Of a stretch of DNA of 25,125 bases, positions 3,240 through 11,589 are shown piece after piece; within the stretch, counting starts at the first letter, position 1, and each line of letters opens with the position of its first letter. Origin of the DNA: Phycisphaerales bacterium (GTDB lineage Bacteria; Planctomycetota; Phycisphaerae; UBA1845; G020352895); assembly GCA_020352895.1 (NCBI GenBank), contig CP070685.1, positions 1,819,120 to 1,844,244 of the forward strand, given 5' to 3'. The notes under the pieces are model-generated. The model worked only from the letters and a program-made list of their open reading frames with translations, was not told where the DNA came from and did not search any database. The position numbers and the translations under genes were made by a program.

Positions 3240-3283
3240 GTAAAAACGCGTCAGGCGCCCGAGGGTCTGACTCGGGTGCCTGG
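3240..3283 (-). terminator. Rho-independent terminator downstream of TadG-like paralog 1 (conserved repeat copy)
   Basis: On the minus strand the hairpin CAGGCACCCGAG-(7 nt loop)-CTCGGGCGCCTG (plus-strand coordinates 3252-3282, one A·C mismatch) is followed by ACGCGTTTTTACGCG (T5). The same element recurs at 5150-5193 and 7066-7109. Confidence 0.55.
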
Positions 3284-3405: not shown

Positions 3406-4599
3406 TCAGCGCACCAGGATGGGCGAGTGGTACACGTTTTCGCTGGTCGTACCGTCGCCGCCGGATATGGCCGCGTCATCCATGGCGATACCAGGCTGGA
3501 CCACGACGCACTTCCTGGTCATGGCTCCTGTGAGATCGACGTGCATGATGCGGACGCCGGTGAACTTCACGATGGTGAAAAGGGCATTGTTGCCCGTGTC
3601 CGAAGCCGCGCTGAAAAGCGGGATCGTCCTGGACTGCCCCACGATGGCCTCCAGCGCGTCCGCCATGCCCGCGCTGAGGCCGGTGTCACCGGTCAGAGTG
3701 AAAGGCCCGTCGGCCAGGCTGAGTTCCCCGCCATGGTATTCCAAGTCCTCGGCTGAGACCCCGTAGAGAAGCTGACGCTCAATGTCTGCCGTGGCGTTGT
3801 TGGCCCCGCCGATGTCCACCGTACCGAAATTGCCCGGCGGCAACTGGTCGTCACCGGACCCGGGGTACAGATTGATCTCCGGGAGTCCGTCCGGCCCCGG
3901 CGTTACCTCCCCCGTCTGGGGGTCATAGGCCCAGTTGTCCTCAAAGACCGAATTCTGTCCGGCCAGAGTGCCGGTGAGCGTGTCCCAGAACGTCTCCCGC
4001 AGGGCGAACGGTATCAGGCCCGCGGTGGCCGTCTCCGAGCGTACCCTGAAGCCGACGATGCCGTACTGAAACGCCGCCGTCGCTTCGGCCACGAGGTCGG
4101 CGGTATCGATGCCCAGAATTCGGGCGAACATCAACGCCACGGGCCCGTTGTACGTCGCGTCGCGCCGGACGCGTACCTTGACCGCGTTGAACTCCGTCAC
4201 ATCGGAGAAGGTCATCGGCTCCCCCGTGTTGTACAGGTGGGGGAGATAGCCGATTACCAAGTCTCCGTCCGGCGCGTTGCCCGGGTTGTAGTCGATTTGC
4301 GGGCCGATCCCCAGTACGGGGTTGCTTCCGGCCACCGCGGCCGCTCGCTGACGCACCAACTGGAAGCTGGTCAGCAACTCGCCCTCACCGTGTAGCCGCC
4401 TTTCGTGCAGCAGCTCCATGGCGCCCGCCAAGGCCGCCGCGTCGGCCGCCACCTGGAGCTCGGTCTTGCCGAGGTACAACCTGCCGGCGTCCACCGCCAG
4501 GGCCGCGAACCCCAGCAGCACCACCCCCGACGCAGCCACGTATACCAGGATCGCACCGCGGCGCTTGTATTTGTTTCTATGATCCGAAGACGCTGACAT
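3406..4599 (-). CDS. TadE/TadG-like (Flp pilus assembly 'Tad' N-terminal domain) protein, paralog 1 of 3
   Basis: The ORF track gives 3406..4863. The start was moved to the internal ATG at 4597-4599 (Met89 of the track ORF) because the two paralogs start at the equivalent position and a strong RBS (AAGGAG, 7 nt upstream) precedes it. The N-terminus 'KRRGAILVYVAASGVVLLGFAALAVDAGRLYLGKTELQVAADAAALAGA' is the hallmark hydrophobic segment plus LQxAADAAALAGA motif of the TadE/TadG family (pfam Tad). The product is 398 aa. Confidence 0.75.
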   Translation of the reverse strand: MSASSDHRNKYKRRGAILVYVAASGVVLLGFAALAVDAGRLYLGKTELQVAADAAALAGAMELLHERRLHGEGELLTSFQLVRQRAAAVAGSNPVLGIGPQIDYNPGNAPDGDLVIGYLPHLYNTGEPMTFSDVTEFNAVKVRVRRDATYNGPVALMFARILGIDTADLVAEATAAFQYGIVGFRVRSETATAGLIPFALRETFWDTLTGTLAGQNSVFEDNWAYDPQTGEVTPGPDGLPEINLYPGSGDDQLPPGNFGTVDIGGANNATADIERQLLYGVSAEDLEYHGGELSLADGPFTLTGDTGLSAGMADALEAIVGQSRTIPLFSAASDTGNNALFTIVKFTGVRIMHVDLTGAMTRKCVVVQPGIAMDDAAISGGDGTTSENVYHSPILVR

Positions 4600-4834
4600 G
4601 TTAACTCCTTTCCAACTTCCGCTTCCGCTCTCTCTCACCACTCCGCATTCAACCAGCGTAGGAGTCGCAGGAATCTGGTCTCTCCGGTGCCGTCCGTAAC
4701 GACTCCCCCCGGCCTGCCTTGCCATAGCAGTTCCGGGAAAGGCACATCGAACGCCGAGGCCTTCACATTGCGGGGACACCGCGACCTTGCGCGACGTCTT
4801 AATGGGCAGATGATCAATGAGGAGATCATGCAAC
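4600..4834 (-). promoter_or_regulatory. Conserved structured 5' leader (copy 1) between the predicted TSS and the ATG, a candidate cis-regulatory RNA
   Basis: About 230 nt. It aligns with the leaders at 6511-6745 and 9175-9358. Conserved blocks include GGCACCGGAG, CUGCGACUC and GGAAAGGAGUNAAC-AUG. Two small hairpins covary: CGCG/GCGCA stems before GGUGU, and GGCG-UYUGAUR-CGCC. Confidence 0.35.
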
Positions 4835-4863
4835 ATGCTATGCCCCTGTGATGCCTGAGGCAA
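4835..4863 (-). promoter_or_regulatory. Sigma70-like promoter of TadG-like paralog 1
   Basis: On the minus strand: -35 TTGCCT (4858-4863), a 17-nt spacer, -10 TAGCAT (4835-4840). The same -35/17/-10 geometry is kept in two other copies although the spacer sequence differs. Confidence 0.4.
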
Positions 4864-4880
4864 ACGTGTGCAGGAGATTA

Positions 4881-4892
4881 GCGCTGACAGCG
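4881..4892 (-). promoter_or_regulatory. Conserved imperfect palindrome about 26 nt upstream of the -35 centre, a candidate transcription-factor site at about -60
   Basis: GCGCTGACAGCG (CGCTG-A-CAGCG). Equivalent sites ACGTTGTCAGCGT at 6792-6804 and CCTGACAGCGTT at 9407-9418 sit at the same distance from their -35 elements. Confidence 0.3.
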
Positions 4893-5149
4893 TTACTGTA
4901 TTAAGGTGGTTCCGAGAAATGCCTGGGTAATGACGCGAGCGGGGTGCGCTGCACGCGATACAATCCGCTTGATGCCTAAACGTCCGAATCCAACGGAGCT
5001 CACTCTGCTTATCGGCTGTGTGTCCACAGACAGCGGGGTGGCACTGTTTCTGCCCTGATGGCTGTACCGCTCCCCTGGGGCGAGTTCGATCCGGCTGGCG
5101 AGCGCCGGTCGGTCTTGCGTGAGTTCCTTCGCGTAGCCGATGCGTCCGC

Positions 5150-5193
5150 GTAAAAACGCGTCAGGCGCCCGAGGGTCTGACTCGGGCGCCTGG
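5150..5193 (-). terminator. Rho-independent terminator downstream of TadG-like paralog 2
   Basis: Perfect 12-bp stem CAGGCGCCCGAG/CTCGGGCGCCTG (5162-5192) plus T5 on the minus strand (plus-strand TAAAAACGCG at 5151-5160). Confidence 0.55.
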
Positions 5194-5316
5194 AACGCGA
5201 ACTTCACTCTGCGGGTGTACCTGAAGGCGAAAGGATAAAAGGTCGACCGGTCCAGCCCCGTTCCAGGCACGCGAGCTGTTCAATGCTCGCGTGCCTCGCA
5301 TCGGCCGTCATAGGCG

Positions 5317-6510
5317 TCAGCGCACTAGGACGGGCGGGTGGTACACGTGTTCGCTGGTCGTACCGTCGCCGCCGAATATGGCCCCGTCATCCATGGCGAT
5401 AGCAGGCTGGAGCAGGACGCACTTGAACTTCATCGCCCCGGTGAGCTTCGCGTCCATGACACGGACGCCCGCGAACTTCACGATGGTGAATACGGAGTTG
5501 TCGCCCGGCCCCGAAACCTCGCTGAAAAGCGGGATCGTCCGGGGCTGCCCGATGATGGCGTCCAGCTCGTCCTTGAGGCCCGAGCTGAGGCCGGTGTCAC
5601 CGTTCAGGATGAACGGCCCGTCGGCCAGACTGAGCTCCCCGCCATGGTACGACAGGTCGTCGGCCGAGACCCCTTCGAGAAGCTGACGCTCAATGTCTGA
5701 AGTCGCGTTGTTGTCCCCACCGATGTCCACCGTACCGAAGTTACCCGGCGGCAACTGCTCTTCACCGACCCCGGGGTACAGATTCAACTCCGGGAGTCCG
5801 TCCTGGCCCGGCGTCACCTGCCCCGTCAGCGGGTCATAGGCATAGTTATCCTGGTAGTTCGCGTTCTCTCCGGCCACAGTGCCCATGAGCAGGTCCCAGA
5901 ACGACTCGCGCAGGGCCATCGGCATCAAGCCCACGGTGCCCGTCTCCGAGGGGGCCCTGAAGCCGATGATGCCGTGGTGAAACGCCGCCGTCGCTTCGGC
6001 CACGAGGTCGGCGGTCTCGATGCCAAGGACCCGCGCGAACATTAAGCCCACCGGCCCATTGTGCGTCGCGTCCCGCCGCACGCGTACTTTGACCGCATTG
6101 AACTCGGTCACATCGGAGAAGGAAATCGCCTCCCCCGTGTTGTACATGGTGCTGAGATAACCGATCACCAAGTCGCCGTCCGCCCCGTTGTCCGGGTTGT
6201 AGTCGATTTGTGGGCCGATCCCCAGAACGGGATTGCTGCCGGCCACCGCGCCCGCTTGCTGACGTGCCAACTGGAAGCTGGTCAGCAACTCGCCGTCACC
6301 GTGCAGCCGCCTCTCGTTCAGCAGCTCGTTGGCGCCCGCTAAGGCTGCCGCGTCGGCCGCTACCTGGAGCTCAGTCTTGCCCAGGTACAGCCTGCCGGCG
6401 TCCACCGCCAGGGCCGCGAACCCCATCAGCACCACCCCCGACGCAGCCACGTATACAACGATGGCTCCGCGGCGCTTGCAGCTATGTCTATGTTCAGAGT
6501 GCGTGGACAT
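5317..6510 (-). CDS. TadE/TadG-like protein, paralog 2 of 3
   Basis: 397 aa with an ATG at 6508-6510 preceded by AAAGGAG. The N-terminus is 'KRRGAIVVYVAASGVVLMGFAALAVDAGRLYLGKTELQVAADAAALAGA'. Identity to paralogs 1 and 3 is about 75% by eye over the full length. Confidence 0.8.
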   Translation of the reverse strand: MSTHSEHRHSCKRRGAIVVYVAASGVVLMGFAALAVDAGRLYLGKTELQVAADAAALAGANELLNERRLHGDGELLTSFQLARQQAGAVAGSNPVLGIGPQIDYNPDNGADGDLVIGYLSTMYNTGEAISFSDVTEFNAVKVRVRRDATHNGPVGLMFARVLGIETADLVAEATAAFHHGIIGFRAPSETGTVGLMPMALRESFWDLLMGTVAGENANYQDNYAYDPLTGQVTPGQDGLPELNLYPGVGEEQLPPGNFGTVDIGGDNNATSDIERQLLEGVSADDLSYHGGELSLADGPFILNGDTGLSSGLKDELDAIIGQPRTIPLFSEVSGPGDNSVFTIVKFAGVRVMDAKLTGAMKFKCVLLQPAIAMDDGAIFGGDGTTSEHVYHPPVLVR

Positions 6511-6745
6511 GTTTACTCCTTTCCGGCTTCCGCTTCAGCTCTCCCCTGCCAATCCGCGTCCCACTAGCGGACGAGTCGCAGGGATCCGGCCCCTCCGGTG
6601 CCGTCAGTAACGATCTTCCCCCGGTCAGCCCTGCCCTAGCAGTCCGGGGAAGGGCGCATCAAACGCCGGGGCCTCCACACTGAGGAAACACCGCGATCAT
6701 GGGCGCGGTTTTTATGGGCAGATGGTCAATGCAGAGACCATAGCA
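6511..6745 (-). promoter_or_regulatory. Conserved structured 5' leader (copy 2)
   Basis: See copy 1. It contains the CGCG-cccatgat-CGCG hairpin and the GGCG-tttgatg-CGCC hairpin. The leader has no open reading frame: an ATG is followed by a stop within 10 codons. Confidence 0.35.
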
Positions 6746-6774
6746 CATATAAGATTCTGTGATGCGCAAGGCAA
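6746..6774 (-). promoter_or_regulatory. Sigma70-like promoter of TadG-like paralog 2
   Basis: -35 TTGCCT (6769-6774), 17-nt spacer, -10 TATATG (6746-6751) on the minus strand. Confidence 0.4.
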
Positions 6775-7065
6775 GCGTGTGCAGGAGATTAACGTTGTCA
6801 GCGTCCTTGTAACAAGGTGGCTCCTAAAAAACGCCTGGGCGACGACGCATGTGGGATGCGCTTCACGCGATACAATCGGCCTCGATGTCCACCGTCCGCA
6901 TTCAACGAAGCTCTCTCTGCTTATCGGCCGTGTGTTGACAGACAGCGGGGTGGCACTGGTGCTGCCCTGACGGCTGCACCCCTCGCTTTGGGCGAGTCTG
7001 ATCCAGCTGGCCATGCGTCTGACGGTTCTGGGTGTGTGCGTTCTTCGCGCAGCGGAAGCGTCCGC

Positions 7066-7109
7066 GTAAAAACGCGTCAGGCGCCCGAGCGTTTGACTCG
7101 GGCGCCTGG
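7066..7109 (-). terminator. Rho-independent terminator downstream of TadG-like paralog 3
   Basis: Perfect stem CAGGCGCCCGAG (7078-7089) / CTCGGGCGCCTG (7097-7108), loop CGTTTGA, and T5 on the minus strand (plus-strand AAAAA at 7067-7071). Confidence 0.55.
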
Positions 7110-7234
7110 GACGCAAACTTCGCGCTGTGGCGGTACTTGAAGGCGATAGGGTGGAAGCTCTGGCGATCAGTCCCCCCGACCCGGGCACGCGAGCTGTTCG
7201 CTGCTGGCGTGCCTCGTGTCGACCGTCTTGGGTG

Positions 7235-8422
7235 TCAGCGCACCAGGCACACCGGATGATACACGTTGGTGCTGGTGTCACCGTCGCCGGGTATGGCCGC
7301 GTCGTCCACGGCGAGAGCAGGCTGGAGCATGACGCACTTCTTGTTCATCGCTCCGGTGAGCCTCACGTGCATGATGCGGACGCCGACGAACCTCACGATG
7401 GTGAACATGGAGGTGTCGCCCACACCCGACACCTCGCTGAACAGCGGGATCGTCCGGGTCTGCCCGACGATGGCCTCCAGCGCGTCCGCCATGCCCGCGC
7501 TGAGGCCGGTGTCACCGGCTAGAACGATGGGCCCGTCGGACAGATTGAGCTCCCCGCCATGGTACTCCAGGTCCTCGGCCGAGACGCCGTCGAGAAGCTG
7601 ACGCACAATATCCGCCGTGGAGTTGTTGGACCCGCCGATGTCGATCGTACCGAAGTTGCCCGGCGGCAACTGGCCCTCGCCGGACCCGGGGTACAGATTC
7701 AACTCCGGGAGTCCGTCCTGCCCCGGCGTCACGTGCTCGGTCAGGGGGTCATAGGCCCAGTTGTCCTCATAGACCGAGTTCTCTCCGGCCAACGTGCCCA
7801 TGAGCGTGTCCCAGCACGTCTCCCGCAGGGTCAGAGGCATCAGGCTCGCGTTGCCCGTTTCCGGGGTGACCCTGAAGCCTATGATGCCGAAGTGAAACGC
7901 CGCCGTTGCCTCGGCCACGAGGTCGGCGGTCTCGATGCCCAAAGCCCGCGCGAACATCAAGGCGACGGACCCGTTGTACGTCTCGTCGCGGCGCACGCGA
8001 ACCTTGACCGCATTGAACTCGGTCGGATCCAATAAGGAAATCGACTCCCCGGTGTTGTACAGGTGGGGGAGATAGCCGATCACCAGGTCGCCGTCCGCCG
8101 CGTTGGCCGGGTTGTAGTCGATTTGCGGGCCGATCCCCAGAACGGGATTGCTGCCGGCCACCGCGCCCGCTCGCTGACGCGCCACCTGGAAGATGATCGC
8201 CAACTCCCCAAGGCCGTGGATCCGCCTCTCGTTCAGCAGCTCATTGGCGCCGGCCAAGGCCGCCGCGTCGGCGGCTACCTGTAGCTCAGTCTTGCCGAGG
8301 TACAGCCTGCCGGCGTCCACCGCGAGGGCTGCGAACCCCGCCAGCACCACCATCGAAGCAACGAGGTACACTACGATGGCTCCGCGGCGTTTGCCGGCTC
8401 TATGACAAGTACGCGCTGACAT
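7235..8422 (-). CDS. TadE/TadG-like protein, paralog 3 of 3
   Basis: 395 aa with an ATG at 8420-8422 preceded by AAGGAG. The N-terminus is 'KRRGAIVVYLVASMVVLAGFAALAVDAGRLYLGKTELQVAADAAALAGA'. Only 35 nt separate it from the upstream gene, and that spacer retains just the last, RBS-bearing part of the leader. Confidence 0.8.
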   Translation of the reverse strand: MSARTCHRAGKRRGAIVVYLVASMVVLAGFAALAVDAGRLYLGKTELQVAADAAALAGANELLNERRIHGLGELAIIFQVARQRAGAVAGSNPVLGIGPQIDYNPANAADGDLVIGYLPHLYNTGESISLLDPTEFNAVKVRVRRDETYNGSVALMFARALGIETADLVAEATAAFHFGIIGFRVTPETGNASLMPLTLRETCWDTLMGTLAGENSVYEDNWAYDPLTEHVTPGQDGLPELNLYPGSGEGQLPPGNFGTIDIGGSNNSTADIVRQLLDGVSAEDLEYHGGELNLSDGPIVLAGDTGLSAGMADALEAIVGQTRTIPLFSEVSGVGDTSMFTIVRFVGVRIMHVRLTGAMNKKCVMLQPALAVDDAAIPGDGDTSTNVYHPVCLVR

Positions 8423-8457
8423 GTTAACTCCTTTCCGGCTTCAGCTTCACGTCTCTG

Positions 8458-9174
8458 CTACGACAGGGGGTTGAACAGTCGCGAGTAGGGGGTGTCGCCG
8501 CCGCCTTGGTCGGCCTGCTCACCCTGGTACACCACCTTGGGCACCGAGTCCGTGCCCAGCAGCCCGTCGGCGCCGTAGTAACGCACCTCGGTAATGACCA
8601 ATGAGTCCACGCGGTTCGAGCCGTAGGTGATTACCGAATTGGCAGCCGATACGTTAGTGTCATAATTGTTCAGAGAGGCGATGGGCGCCGTCCCCTGAAT
8701 TTGAAGGCTGTGGCCCCCGAACGCGCCCCACGTGGCGGACTGCCCGTTGATAATCGCGAAGGTCAGGACCGCCCCGTTGGTCTCCATGGTTTGGGTCCAG
8801 CGGAGGGTCTCCGCGGTGGTGCTCAGTTCATTCGAGCTGAAGTCCCGGTGCAGCCGGCACTCGTCGTCGGCCCAGCCCTGGATCTGAAGGCCGCCCGGGG
8901 CGAAGTCCGGCAGTTCCCGCCAGTTCCAGGTCACCTGAGCGTACAACGAATCGAGGTCCCCCACCGGGGACATCACCGTGTGAAACTGCGGTGCGTGTAC
9001 CGCTTGGTCCGGTTCGTTTAACACCAGCTTCCAGTCCTGTTCGATCCGCAGGATTGGTTCCGGCTCATCCTGGGACCCTGAGATGGGAATGGCCACGACC
9101 AGAACGGCCGCGACACAGGCCAACACCGGCAGCTTTGGGCCGCCAAGCTTAAACGAGCTGCGCACGCACACCAT
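8458..9174 (-). CDS. Secreted protein of unknown function with a Sec signal peptide, co-transcribed upstream of TadG-like paralog 3
   Basis: 238 aa with an ATG at 9172-9174 preceded by AAGGAG. The N-terminus 'MVCVRSSFKLGGPKLPVLACVAAVLVVAIPISGS' has a basic n-region followed by a hydrophobic h-region. The remainder is rich in Ser, Thr, Asn, Gly and Trp and is probably a beta-rich fold. It is driven by its own copy of the conserved promoter and leader. Confidence 0.6.
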   Translation of the reverse strand: MVCVRSSFKLGGPKLPVLACVAAVLVVAIPISGSQDEPEPILRIEQDWKLVLNEPDQAVHAPQFHTVMSPVGDLDSLYAQVTWNWRELPDFAPGGLQIQGWADDECRLHRDFSSNELSTTAETLRWTQTMETNGAVLTFAIINGQSATWGAFGGHSLQIQGTAPIASLNNYDTNVSAANSVITYGSNRVDSLVITEVRYYGADGLLGTDSVPKVVYQGEQADQGGGDTPYSRLFNPLS

Positions 9175-9358
9175 CGCGTTTCTCCTTGAATACGGTCACC
9201 AGTTATGCTGTACCAGAGCCCAGACGGGTGCGTGCCCGGTCAGCCCTCCCATGGCGGTCCGGGGAAAGGCGTATCAGACGCCGGGGACTCCACACGGCGG
9301 ACACCGCGCACTCGTGCGCAGTGTTCATACGCGGATCGCCGGTGAGGAGACCATAGCA
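9175..9358 (-). promoter_or_regulatory. Conserved structured 5' leader (copy 4), upstream of the secreted-protein gene
   Basis: Contains the GCGCA-cgag-TGCGC hairpin followed by GGTGT, the GGCG-tctgata-CGCC hairpin, the CCCCGGAC and GGGCTGACCGGG blocks, and an AAGGAG RBS. Confidence 0.35.
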
Positions 9359-9387
9359 GATATATGATTCCAGTAGGCCCCGGGCAA
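9359..9387 (-). promoter_or_regulatory. Sigma70-like promoter (copy 4)
   Basis: -35 TTGCCC (9382-9387), 17-nt spacer, -10 TATATC (9359-9364) on the minus strand. It is flanked by the conserved CACACGCTTGCC and TGCTATGGTCTC blocks. Confidence 0.4.
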
Positions 9388-9563
9388 GCGTGTGCACCAA
9401 ATCGGTCCTGACAGCGTTCCAGTAACAAGGTGGTTCCGAAAAAGCCCCGACCGATAACGCAAGGATCGCGCCTCAGGCCGATGTGTTTTCCGTCCAAGCC
9501 TCACGCCCGCATTTGACGAAGCGGGCTGCTTATCGCCCGTTTGTTGACGACGGATGGTACAAG

Positions 9564-10697
9564 TCAGTTGCCACCGTTGTCGTTCTCTCGGATGAGGCTC
9601 CTCACGTGACCGACAAGGTCGCCCGACCCGAGCACGAACGTGGTCCGGGCACCGGTGAGGATCTCCTGGAGCATTTCGAGTTCCTTGATTCGCGCGAGAG
9701 CGGGATTGTCCGTCAGCAGTCTCGCTGTGTTGGCCTGGCTGCGTGCGGCCGCGGTTTCCTCACGCCGCTTGATGATGTTGGCCTGGGCCTCTTTCTCCGC
9801 GGTGATGACCCGGTTGAGAATATCTCTCATTTCCCCGGGGAGAATGATGTCGCGCAGGCCCACGCTCTTGACGGCGACGCCGAAGTCGTCCGCCCGCTGT
9901 TGCAGCGCGCTGCGCACCTCTCCACCAATCGCCTCTTTATCGGCCAGCATGACGTCGAGGCTCCGCGTGCCCACCACCGCCCGCAAGGCCAACTGGGCCT
10001 CTCGGTAAAGCGCCTGCCCGTAATCGTCCACAACCGTCGCCGCCTTGACCGCATCGGCCACCTGGTATGTAACCAAGAGATTGACGCGCAGGCTGACCTT
10101 GTCGCTCGTGATGATCTCCTGCCCGGACACGTCAATGAGTTGCTCGCTTGTGTCGACCCGTTGCCATTCCACGTCGCCTGCGGCACTCCAAAACGCGTGC
10201 TTGCCGTCCCGATATGTGCTGACCAGGCGCCCGTTGTGGAACACAAGGCACTCCTGTTGAGGCTCAACCAACATGGACTTGAGGTGGTAGGAGCTGTCCT
10301 TGTGTGCCAGGACGGCTTCGAGGTGAGGGTGCTCAAGACGGAGGTCCTGTACGTTGAAAGTCTCGACATGCAGGTGATAGGGCTCCTTCCAGAAGGCGTG
10401 TCGGCCGGCGCCGAGGATCCAGCCGAGACGGCCGTCCTTCCAGACCAGGGCGCGCTCATCATCCCTCAGGTCGACCACGTACAGCGCCTCGCAAACGTCT
10501 CCGTGGGTCAGCAGGACGTCAAGCAGCGGATGCACGAATCGCGTACTCAGAGTATCCACAACCTGGATCTCGTCGCGCTGCCGATTCCACAGCCGCCCCC
10601 ACAGGCGGTATGTCCCCGGGCCCAGCAGTCGCACAAAGTCGCCATAGTGGAACAGCAGGCCGCGCTCGTGTTGTCTGATGCGAGTGAAAATGCTCAT
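9564..10697 (-). CDS. SPFH/band-7 (stomatin-prohibitin-flotillin-HflK/C; slipin-like) domain protein
   Basis: The ORF track gives 9564..10778. The start was moved to the ATG at 10695-10697 (MSIFTRIRQ...) because GGAGGGG lies 8 nt upstream. The C-terminal half, '...VSLRVNLLVTYQVAD...ITAEKEAQANIIKRREETAAARSQANTARLL...ARIKELEMLQEI', is typical of SPFH. The N-terminal ~200 aa show no obvious transmembrane helix. Confidence 0.7.
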   Translation of the reverse strand: MSIFTRIRQHERGLLFHYGDFVRLLGPGTYRLWGRLWNRQRDEIQVVDTLSTRFVHPLLDVLLTHGDVCEALYVVDLRDDERALVWKDGRLGWILGAGRHAFWKEPYHLHVETFNVQDLRLEHPHLEAVLAHKDSSYHLKSMLVEPQQECLVFHNGRLVSTYRDGKHAFWSAAGDVEWQRVDTSEQLIDVSGQEIITSDKVSLRVNLLVTYQVADAVKAATVVDDYGQALYREAQLALRAVVGTRSLDVMLADKEAIGGEVRSALQQRADDFGVAVKSVGLRDIILPGEMRDILNRVITAEKEAQANIIKRREETAAARSQANTARLLTDNPALARIKELEMLQEILTGARTTFVLGSGDLVGHVRSLIRENDNGGN

Positions 10698-11589
10698 GCT
10701 CTTTCCCCTCCTGTGTTCAGTTGGTAGGGAGCGGTCACGTTTCGGGTGCGTCCCCACACGCGGGTGCCTGGCAGGCAAGTCTCATCCCCGGTGGCTCAAC
10801 CGAAGGCAACGTGTTCTCCCGGACCAAAAGGCCAAGTTGAGAGGCTGGACCACAGCGGGCCACGCCCCCGCGGCGGAGTCCTGCTTGAGACGCGTCAGGG
10901 ATCCGTCCGCCGCGGCCGTGATTGAGCTTTCCTCCCACTGGATCACGGCCGGGCGACAGGATGTGGCACGTCGGTATCCGCACGACTGCGAGGCCGCGAT
11001 GGCGCTGCCGCGCGGACTTCGGCTCGAAGCGGTCAAGCGCTTCAAACTGAAGGCTCGAGCGGCCGGCCGGGCTGCCGGTGCAGCCCCCCAACCGACCAGG
11101 AGGGGGTAAGGCGGTCCGCATAGGGCGCGGGCCGTCCTGAGGGGTGGGCTTCGTCAATGCCTTCGACACTGTAGCCGGAACGCACATCGGTAAGTACGCA
11201 GATACACCATGCGCGCCGTCAGCTAGCATCGAGCGAAGTTCATACACCGTTGCTTCGGTGCTTTTCATTCCATCTGCCGCTTCCATCGAGGCGACGGCCG
11301 GGCCGGATTCGACCGTTTGCATCTCGTGCATGGTGCCCGGCCTTGCTCTTCCTTCTGGGACTCCCATCGGGAGCCCGGTGCAGGATTAACCATAGCAACG
11401 ATGCGGTGGCTGGCAAGTGTAAGATGGTTATGATTTTGGTTATCGTCGGCCTTGACGTGAGCGTTAACACCCGCGTTTGCCGTCGGCATGTTCCGTGACG
11501 ACCGGAGCCCGCGCGCGACGAGCTCCTTGATGCCCTGCCGAGCCGTTGGCGTTTTTCCTGAACGGCTGCTTTGGCGAGCCTCGTGCTGC

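Follow-up and report, generated by a model that had tools for sequence, protein, structure and literature searches.

Tandemly duplicated promoter and 5' leader modules of TadG-like genes in a Phycisphaerales genome, with a probable 5'-proximal stem-loop

Riboswitch classes are conserved far more deeply than their genes. In Escherichia coli, 5'-terminal stem-loops reportedly prolong the life of the ompA and papA mRNAs (Bricker & Belasco 1999, J Bacteriol 181:3587, as cited in PMC4843948). A stem-loop in the 5' untranslated region (5'UTR) influences vacA expression in Helicobacter pylori (PMC4843948). The leaders described here lie in a 25,125-nt stretch of DNA (the window; contig CP070685.1, positions 1,819,120 to 1,844,244) from a 3.6-Mb contig recorded as "MAG: Phycisphaerales bacterium". 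Three copies (c1, c2 and c3, or copies 1, 2 and 3) precede genes for TadG-like proteins and a gene for a 238-aa protein, termed geneX. Their comparison showed them to be paralogous promoter-plus-UTR modules whose mutual similarity reflects only the age of a duplication. The account favoured here, with modest confidence, is that of an ordinary promoter and 5'UTR module which was multiplied with its gene by tandem duplication, was remodelled by loss of geneX and carries a probable stabilising 5'-terminal stem-loop. The leader is not shown to be a riboswitch, and no new class of regulator is opened by it.

The likeness to the ompA, papA and vacA stem-loops comprises a predicted stable stem-loop at or near the predicted 5' terminus, an mRNA that serves a surface or secreted structure, the lack of a ligand-binding architecture, a lineage-restricted sequence and a position that is kept in five of seven copies. 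Unlike those elements, the Phycisphaerales stem extends over ~70 nt with a second hairpin inside it, its 5' end is a predicted one, and one paralogue has lost the stem. The array also resembles the tandem amplification of pilin genes (multiple flp genes in Tad loci) in its head-to-tail Tad-family paralogues (76-78% amino-acid identity), each unit having a promoter, UTR and terminator. It differs from the flp arrays in that the amplified gene encodes a TadG-like protein of 397 aa outside a tad cluster, and in that two units have lost geneX, which left a composite UTR. With the c-di-GMP-I (GEMM) and c-di-GMP-II riboswitches the leaders share a long 5'UTR before pilus-associated genes; unlike these, they show no covariance model match at a permissive threshold, no deep conservation and no supported multi-helix core.

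The leaders are three homologous segments of the minus strand, each directly 5' of a start codon, and their likeness is far above chance, as the original prediction had recognised. Copy 1 (4600-4834, 235 nt) precedes tadG1 (3406-4599, 397 aa) and copy 2 (6511-6745, 235 nt) precedes tadG2 (5317-6510, 397 aa). Copy 3 (9175-9358) is the 5'UTR of geneX (8458-9174), whose ATG at 9174 lies ~180 nt downstream of the predicted start site. This copy is termed the ancestral type; c1 and c2 are of a composite type. The third TadG-like gene, tadG3 (7235-8422, 395 aa), follows geneX in the same orientation after a 35-nt gap. All three TadG-like products contain Tad (PF13400) and Tad_C (PF09977) domains. 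Identity between c1 and c2 was 77-79% (184/234 aligned bases in one alignment), and both were 69-77% identical to c3 over the common part. A covariance model built on the shared leader core (CM R1) matched exactly three places in the window, at 4690-4833 (c1, E 3.7e-28), 6601-6745 (c2, E 8.6e-34) and 9216-9358 (c3, E 5.5e-31). The leader had been placed upstream of four genes; the fourth, tadG3, sits behind geneX and has only the 35-nt spacer before it. The list of sequence blocks said to be common to all leaders was likewise too long. Only GGUGU was present in all three, with CUGCCCAU, GGCACCGGAG, CUGCGACUC and GGAAAGGAG missing in c3, and GUGUGGAGNCCCCGGCG and CCCCGGAC missing in c1.

Similarity extended beyond the leaders through a unit of ~1911 nt, present three times head to tail and comprising the tadG-like gene, its terminator and the intergenic region. 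Direct-repeat families D1-D11 were spaced 1910-1918 nt apart, with 82-84% identity in coding and 72-88% in non-coding sequence. Coding and non-coding DNA alike were covered by three direct-repeat families with a spacing of ~1911-1916 nt. The c1 and c2 units could be aligned across the entire 717-724-nt intergenic regions, terminator included, at 78% identity. Synonymous divergence (dS) between tadG1 and tadG2 was 0.277, with a dN/dS of 0.48. The Jukes-Cantor distance (K) between the paralogues was 0.25 in the leader and likewise 0.25 in the intergenic region as a whole; the terminator flank gave 0.24 and the DNA 5' of the promoter 0.29. Of 235 sites, the c1 and c2 leaders differed at 50, where dS predicts 54 (P = 0.28). 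Because the leaders have diverged about as far as the synonymous sites, the likeness among the window copies gives no evidence of constraint or function. The conservation that had been taken as a sign of function thus matches neutral divergence after tandem duplication (K 0.25 vs dS 0.277), and the continuous similarity of coding and non-coding DNA, with non-coding divergence close to synonymous, identifies a tandem segmental duplication. Non-coding similarity within one genome can mimic a conserved RNA motif where recent tandem duplication alone accounts for it. The deciding comparison is that of non-coding with synonymous divergence, paralogues and orthologues being taken separately.

The equality of K and dS between paralogues is also what would be seen if the leader had no function beyond its promoter and ribosome-binding site (RBS), the hairpins being chance features of a GC-rich ancestral sequence still common to young copies. 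We regard this as unlikely, on the evidence of orthologues and of controls given below.

The ~225-nt leader, originally treated as one unit, was found to be composite in c1 and c2, with a first ~128 nt of geneX-UTR type and a last ~42-67 nt of spacer type. Both copies aligned with c3 from ~230 nt upstream of the leader to GCUGACCGGG (CCGGG), ~128 nt into the leader, and then diverged from it. An nhmmer search was run with a profile built from the last 113 nt of the composite-type leaders. The profile matched contig L002 at 354-408, just 5' of tadG (E 5.4e-10), the window at 8423-8464, which holds the geneX stop and the spacer before tadG3 (minus strand; E 1e-7), and the geneX-tadG spacer of contig L087 at 1265-1329 (E 0.004). 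Within the operon, the segment at 8423-8464 corresponds to the last ~42 nt of the c1 and c2 leaders. In c1 the spacer-homologous segment spans 4600-4666 (minus strand), with the tadG Shine-Dalgarno (SD) sequence GGAAAGGAG at 4605-4613; its c2 equivalent is 6511-6577. These matches indicate that the 235-nt leader consists of the 5' portion of the geneX UTR, ~45 nt of untraced sequence and an old intercistronic spacer with the tadG SD. Only the last ~42-67 nt are demonstrably spacer-derived. The middle piece (GGCACCGGAG...CUGCGACUC) was also considered as what remains of the 3'-terminal geneX codons, fused at an ACC(G/A)GGG microhomology, as suggested by MAFFT. This was rejected, since local-alignment shuffle tests gave P 0.20 and 0.99 and nhmmer with this piece alone gave no match.

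A geneX-tadG pair, 57-84% identical to that of the window, recurs in the metagenomic contigs L004, L005, L087 and L090, and is therefore taken as the ancestral arrangement. A second organism, represented by the overlapping contigs L002 and L001, has the same three-unit array, so that the amplification predates the split of the two organisms. The ancestral operon comprised a promoter, a ~180-nt 5'UTR, geneX, a 35-80-nt spacer, a tadG-like gene and a terminator, and was amplified to three tandem units of ~1.9 kb. The two downstream units no longer have geneX, and in them the first ~128 nt of the UTR are linked, via ~45 nt, to the old spacer carrying the tadG RBS. As judged from these alignments, the tandem duplication and the composite origin of the leaders were both shown.

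The three tadG paralogues had dN/dS values of 0.46-0.52. Their mutual dS (0.28-0.32) was not above the orthologue dS in the second organism (0.31-0.39), and amino-acid identity was 82-87% between orthologues vs 76-78% between paralogues. These values hint at gene conversion, diversifying selection or both in the tadG array.

Orthologous leaders were paired by gene identity as c1/L001b, c2/L002b and c3/L002a. The c2/L002b core differed at 17 of 128 sites, against 34.6 predicted by a dS of 0.335 (P 1.5e-4) and 39 by the upstream intergenic rate (P 5e-6); K over the whole leader was 0.178. The c3/L002a core differed at 16 of 125 sites, against 31.9 expected (P 3.8e-4), with K 0.14-0.17 vs dS 0.31. 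For c1/L001b the core differed at 28 of 129 sites, against 39 expected from dS (P 0.02; K 0.25 vs dS 0.39), a weaker constraint, and there was no difference from the upstream rate. In copies 2 and 3, promoter and leader core thus evolve between orthologues at ~0.45 of the synonymous rate. This slow divergence indicates selection on some feature of the promoter-proximal UTR in copies 2 and 3, and copy 1 looks relaxed. It also speaks against a functionless leader, given that both cores change more slowly than synonymous sites (P ~1e-4) and than the upstream intergenic DNA. Contig L087 is more distant (geneX 84% identical, dS 0.68). There, the DNA 5' of the -35 hexamer was unalignable (K 1.17), and K for promoter plus leader was 0.57. 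L087 keeps the promoter, ATGGTCTCC and a ~75-nt block GGAG..CGGCGU..GAU..ACGCC..CCCGG..CCGGGCACGCACCC; the ~55 nt between them are replaced.

A predicted promoter lies on the minus strand 5' of each leader. That of tadG1 is at 4835-4863 (-35 TTGCCT 4858-4863, -10 TAGCAT 4835-4840), that of tadG2 at 6746-6774 (-35 TTGCCT 6769-6774, -10 TATATG 6746-6751) and that of the geneX-tadG3 operon at 9359-9387 (-35 TTGCCC 9382-9387, 17-nt spacer, -10 TATATC 9359-9364). The motif TTGCC(T/C)-N17-TAnnA(T/G/C) was kept in 7/7 copies (c1, c2, c3, L001b, L002a, L002b and L087), its end being placed 6-7 nt ahead of the leaders as first delimited. The promoter stretches of c2 and L002b had three mismatches in 44 nt (K 0.07), against a K of 0.39 for the upstream intergenic DNA. 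On the strength of this conserved motif, the downstream sequence is called a 5'UTR, of ~180 nt in copy 3 and ~230 nt in copies 1 and 2. The part of the original prediction that saw a transcribed 5' leader is accordingly retained as the most plausible reading; that of a conserved regulatory RNA is not.

Whole leaders were no more stable than dinucleotide shuffles (minimum free energy (MFE) z +0.43, +0.34 and +0.07 for c1, c2 and c3). Predicted stems are labelled P1 to P4. Two hairpins had been said to covary, namely P2 (the hairpin before GGUGU) and P3 (GGCGU..ACGCC), and this claim failed: in five sequences, neither had a pair changed on both sides. Only one-sided changes (G-C to G-U, U-A to U-G) or broken pairs were seen. 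The RNAalifold covariation term for the five core sequences (+1.44) was a net penalty, and shuffling of the 3' partners nearly matched the observed pairing of these hairpins (87.1%, against 88.7% observed).

A signal was obtained at the level of the alignment, where consensus energy was compared with that of column-shuffled alignments and controls were taken from the same seven-genome phylogeny. The controls comprised 22 tadG coding windows of 140 nt (z +0.26 +/- 1.08, minimum -1.85), the upstream intergenic DNA (~0) and the terminator as positive control (-4.7 on both strands). The leader core gave z -4.15 (sense) and -1.4 (antisense). Within the first 80 alignment columns, consensus energy reached -16.2, against -4.5 +/- 2.4 in shuffled alignments (z -4.84 sense, -1.90 antisense). 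The P3-P4 half alone was not significant (z -1.15). The 5' element is thus an outlier in stability relative to the 22 matched controls, which again counts against a leader without function.

The predicted 5' fold occupies the first ~72 nt, with a 14-bp stem P1 around the GC hairpin P2. In c3 (9285-9352, minus strand) P1 is formed by GGUCUCCUCACCGG / GCCGUGUGGAGUCC, and P2 by ACACUGCGCA-CGAG-UGCGCGGUGU at 9301-9324. In c2 (6670-6739, minus strand) P1 has 14 contiguous pairs, four of them G-U (GGUCUCUGCAUUGA / UCAGUGUGGAGGCC), and P2 is ACCGCG-N8-CGCGGU at 6690-6709. The c1 stem is degraded, with two of its pairs broken (GAUCUCC / GAAGGCC). P1 begins 6-7 nt beyond the -10 hexamer and 0-2 nt beyond the predicted start site. 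Downstream of the stem-loop, c3 has P3 (GGCGU-CUGAU-ACGCC, 9268-9282) and P4 (CCCGG...CCGGG, 9235-9263) on the minus strand, and this stretch (9235-9282) is the best conserved with L087. The corresponding stems of c2 (6620-6667, minus strand) are at 6653-6667 and 6620-6648. P3 was paired in each of the seven copies; its three changes were one-sided and all wobble-compatible on the sense strand. The CCCGG/CCGGG arms of P4 were invariant.

Dinucleotide-shuffle z values for the 5' element in single sequences were -3.4 (c2), -3.1 (c3), -3.8 (L002a), -2.0 (L001b), -2.1 (L087), -0.7 (L002b) and -0.3 (c1), and a second run gave similar values (-0.1 for c1). Over P1 and P2 in seven sequences, 80.7% of cells were paired, against 75.6 +/- 1.3% in shuffles (1/500 reached it). 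Five pairs had changed on both sides, a count reached by 7/500 shuffles, the seven related copies being too few for an R-scape-type test. Calibration of the tool indicated that such P1 and P2 values can arise without structure in a minority of related alignments. The same P1 and P2 were predicted independently by RNAalifold. These predictions give moderate evidence for a 5'-proximal stem-loop, which the constrained copies keep whole and the relaxed copy 1 is losing. Some observations would fit a functionless leader: copy 1 and its orthologue lost P1 and kept the gene, the interior is replaced in L087, there is no net covariation, and the leader is unalignable at 63% geneX identity.

Under the favoured account of a duplicated promoter and 5'UTR module, each module would drive one unit from a sigma-70-like TTGCC-N17-TAnnAN promoter. 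The transcript would start within 0-2 nt of the ~70-nt P1/P2 stem-loop, followed by the small hairpins P3 and P4. The stem-loop would be constitutive, shielding the 5' end from 5'-end-dependent decay and giving longer-lived mRNAs for abundant surface-structure proteins. Copies 2 and 3 would keep it under purifying selection, and copy 1 would be losing it. By analogy with ompA and papA of E. coli, we infer that the stem-loop may protect the 5' end of the mRNA. To our knowledge, the RNase repertoire of Phycisphaerae is not characterised, and we know of almost no experimental RNA biology in this class. If the 5' stem-loop is real, it would be among the first cis-acting mRNA elements described in Phycisphaerae, and it would offer a small handle on the expression of a diversifying family of TadG-like surface proteins.

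Several observations weigh against this account. A generic sigma-70 scan did not flag the promoter, which was recognised by its conservation. The seven leader copies come from only three or four organisms in the searched collections and are not independent. The dS of tadG is perhaps not a clean neutral yardstick (omega ~0.5, possible gene conversion). For P1 and P2, the RNAalifold covariation term (+1.27) was a net penalty, and by our own reading of the alignment, substitutions that break pairs are about as many as those that keep them in the four copies with an intact P1. In folds of the full length, P1 had an ensemble probability of 0-0.47 and was rarely dominant, its partners varying by copy. 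The L087 interior is remodelled and folds differently, and the 5' GGUCUCCUUA of L087 pairs with the Shine-Dalgarno sequence at a probability of 0.96. The antisense strand of c3-type copies folds almost as well as the sense strand (z -2.15 sense and -1.65 antisense for c3, in a window shifted by 1 nt from that used above; -3.28 and -2.99 for L002a).

This antisense folding leaves a DNA-level inverted repeat as a possible explanation. The blocks would then act as transcription-factor operators in the initially transcribed region (GGTCTCC...GGAGNCC, GGCGT-N5-ACGCC and CCCGG...CCGGG), with the RNA folds as a by-product. Near-equal folding of both strands in c3 and L002a is what Watson-Crick palindromes would give. 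A perfect GGCGT-N5-ACGCC palindrome occurs in c3, L002a and L087, L087 has five GGAGAC/GTCTCC half-sites within 70 nt of the predicted start site, and the constraint spans promoter and core jointly. The other copies point the opposite way. The 14-bp stem of c2 and L002b needs four to five G-U pairs, and in the same strand comparison c2 gave z -3.30 sense vs +0.35 antisense, and the antisense strand of L002b gave +0.29. The alignment signal was also stronger in the sense direction (-4.8 vs -1.9), the changes in P3 (A to G, C to U) preserve RNA pairing and break DNA symmetry, and no regulator gene adjoins the tadG array in the window annotation. Operator function of this kind is considered improbable. 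In L087, the five half-sites lie at 392-470, together with a local duplication of GAGACCGCGG, and allow several mutually exclusive hairpins.

The favoured stabilising role was also set against a sensing one, in which a riboswitch, a thermosensor or a platform for a regulator would switch pilus-associated genes. In one variant, the CU-rich 5' arm of P1 (GGUCUCC) would pair either with a decoy GGAG at ~+70 or with the real SD; in another, a CsrA-type protein would bind the GGA-rich tract before each tadG start. A sensing RNA would be in keeping with the long UTR (180-235 nt), with core blocks constrained between orthologues, with P3 paired in 7/7 copies through wobble-compatible changes, with the pairing of the 5' end and the SD in L087 and in the MFE fold of c1, where the 5' end is paired with the SD region, and with the five GGA motifs that c1 and c2 each hold in their last ~47 nt. 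Sequestration of the SD by the 5' arm was followed across the copies and rejected as a general feature; it is strong in L087 only and inconsistent in the others.

A purine-rich tract of GGA repeats lies directly 5' of each tadG start (4600-4650, 6511-6560 and 8423-8450, minus strand) and resembles CsrA-type sites. Counting the SD, copies 1 and 2 each have five GGA motifs in this tract; tadG3 is preceded by two. The candidate likeness to CsrA/RsmA-regulated leaders thus consists of four to five GGA motifs, SD included, in the ~47 nt before tadG1 and tadG2; unlike those leaders, only two occur before tadG3, and no CsrA gene was seen in the window (no dedicated test was made).

The absence of a match to any known riboswitch, as stated originally, was borne out: Rfam models, among them those of riboswitches (c-di-GMP-I/II included), thermometers, leaders and sRNAs, gave no hits at gathering thresholds over the whole window. 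At E values up to 5 over 4500-9700, four weak matches were obtained and none lay within a leader. CM R1 matched only the window and the contigs L001, L002, L003 and L087-89. It found nothing in ~65 loci with more distant TadG-like proteins (genomes and metagenomes), nor, with filters off, in L090 and L091, whose geneX has 63% identity. No alignment with the leader was obtained for the upstream DNA of L004 and L005. Genome contigs searched with a single protein gave no match, and an exact-sequence look-up of geneX gave none either. A protein alignment search of genome contigs returned only relatives of <=50% identity, none with the element, and a protein-based scan of metagenomes returned distant loci only. 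A metagenome scan with a 21-base degenerate pattern of the leader core gave 0 matches, in a collection evidently without the samples that hold L001 and L002. At the L092 locus (P0008), only 34 nt of upstream DNA were present. The leader was therefore undetectable where geneX was <=63% or tadG <=57% identical. Within the collections searched, it is confined to a very narrow clade, as UTR sequence typically is and known riboswitch classes are not.

This narrow distribution counts against a sensing RNA, as do the absence of an Rfam match to E 5, the whole-leader z of +0.07 to +0.43, the lack of a conserved multi-stem junction or pocket-like core, the absence of two-sided changes in the two hairpins first named, the P3-P4 consensus z of -1.15 and the full-length pairings that differ among copies. 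The 3' third, moreover, is a spacer remnant that is not in the ancestral copy. Nothing points to the sensing of a ligand or of temperature, and a sensing role is judged quite unlikely. The form in which it might hold is that the first ~130 nt (P1-P2, P3 with its invariant GAU loop, P4 and the ancestral-type invariant CCGGGCACGCACCC) are a new, clade-restricted cis-regulatory RNA of Phycisphaerales that switches an orphan geneX/tadG-like surface-protein cassette and was co-amplified with its target, possibly through competition of the decoy GGAG with the SD or through a GGA-binding regulator. That form, too, appears doubtful.

A further alternative is that a mini-ORF of nine codons, beginning at the predicted transcription start, is translated as a leader peptide (MVSALTICP in copy 2, MVSSPAIRV in copy 3). 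It is found at 6713-6742 and 9326-9355 (minus strand) of the window and at 40-69 and 1883-1912 of L002. Its length and stop position are equal in c2, c3, L002a and L002b, the copies with an intact P1. Translation is nevertheless highly improbable. The frame opens with ATG in the window and with GTG in its two orthologues, and there is no SD before it. Of four codon changes between orthologues, three are non-synonymous; c1 and L001b have lost the stop, and in L087 the frame runs to 28 codons. It was correctly noted at the outset that copy 2 has a stop nine codons after its ATG; the same stop distance occurs in copy 3, and the peptide frame is present in 4/7 copies. Copy 1 is wholly open in frame with tadG1, giving a 485-aa ORF from a TTG (3406-4863, minus strand). 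Given the in-frame stops in copy 2, this extension is not a conserved N-terminal one.

The order of genes on the minus strand is the SPFH/Band-7 gene (9564-10778), 389 nt of intergenic DNA, geneX, 35 nt, tadG3, 724 nt, tadG2, 717 nt and tadG1, with a convergent PMT_2-family gene beyond tadG1. In the source records, the tadG-like genes are JSU68_07780, JSU68_07785 and JSU68_07790, and geneX is JSU68_07795. No further tad genes were found within the window, the array lying outside any tad secretion-gene cluster. Intrinsic terminators on the minus strand follow tadG2 (5162-5192), tadG3 (7078-7108) and tadG1 (3253-3282, one stem mismatch), each with a GC stem of 12-13 bp and then ACGCGTTTTT. As each tandem unit is closed by the same strong terminator, the tadG genes look like separate transcription units.

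A block GGAACCACCTTGTTAC..(A/G)ACGCTGTCAG lies ~30-75 nt 5' of the -35 hexamer at 4880-4925, 6791-6836 and 9404-9449 (minus strand). It is also present in L001b and partly in L087 (GGAGCCAAC..GGACGAT). A by-eye search for sigma-54 (GG-N10-GC) and ECF-type (GGAAC-N16-CGT) promoters noted GGAACC-N16-CGCT in this region of all window copies, a match that could not be evaluated. The block may serve as an activator site or as an ECF-type promoter (GGAAC-N16-CG).

The geneX product has no Pfam or NCBIfam match, and on our reading of the translation its N-terminus is hydrophobic and signal-peptide-like. It belongs to a family of ~220-240-aa proteins with such N-termini (164 database matches), encoded directly 5' of tadG-like genes across Phycisphaerae/Planctomycetota. 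Members include those at 8458-9174 of the window, 329-1060 of L004, 2791-3447 of L005 and 579-1247 of L087. The family appears to be an uncharacterised partner of TadG-like proteins. In L002, geneX is cut to an ORF of 55 codons (219-390), of which only the N-terminal signal-peptide-like part is left. The window geneX runs past the ancestral stop (GACCAA, vs GACTAG in L087), which adds ~16 residues that overlap the old spacer (window 8458-8510 vs L087 1230-1250).

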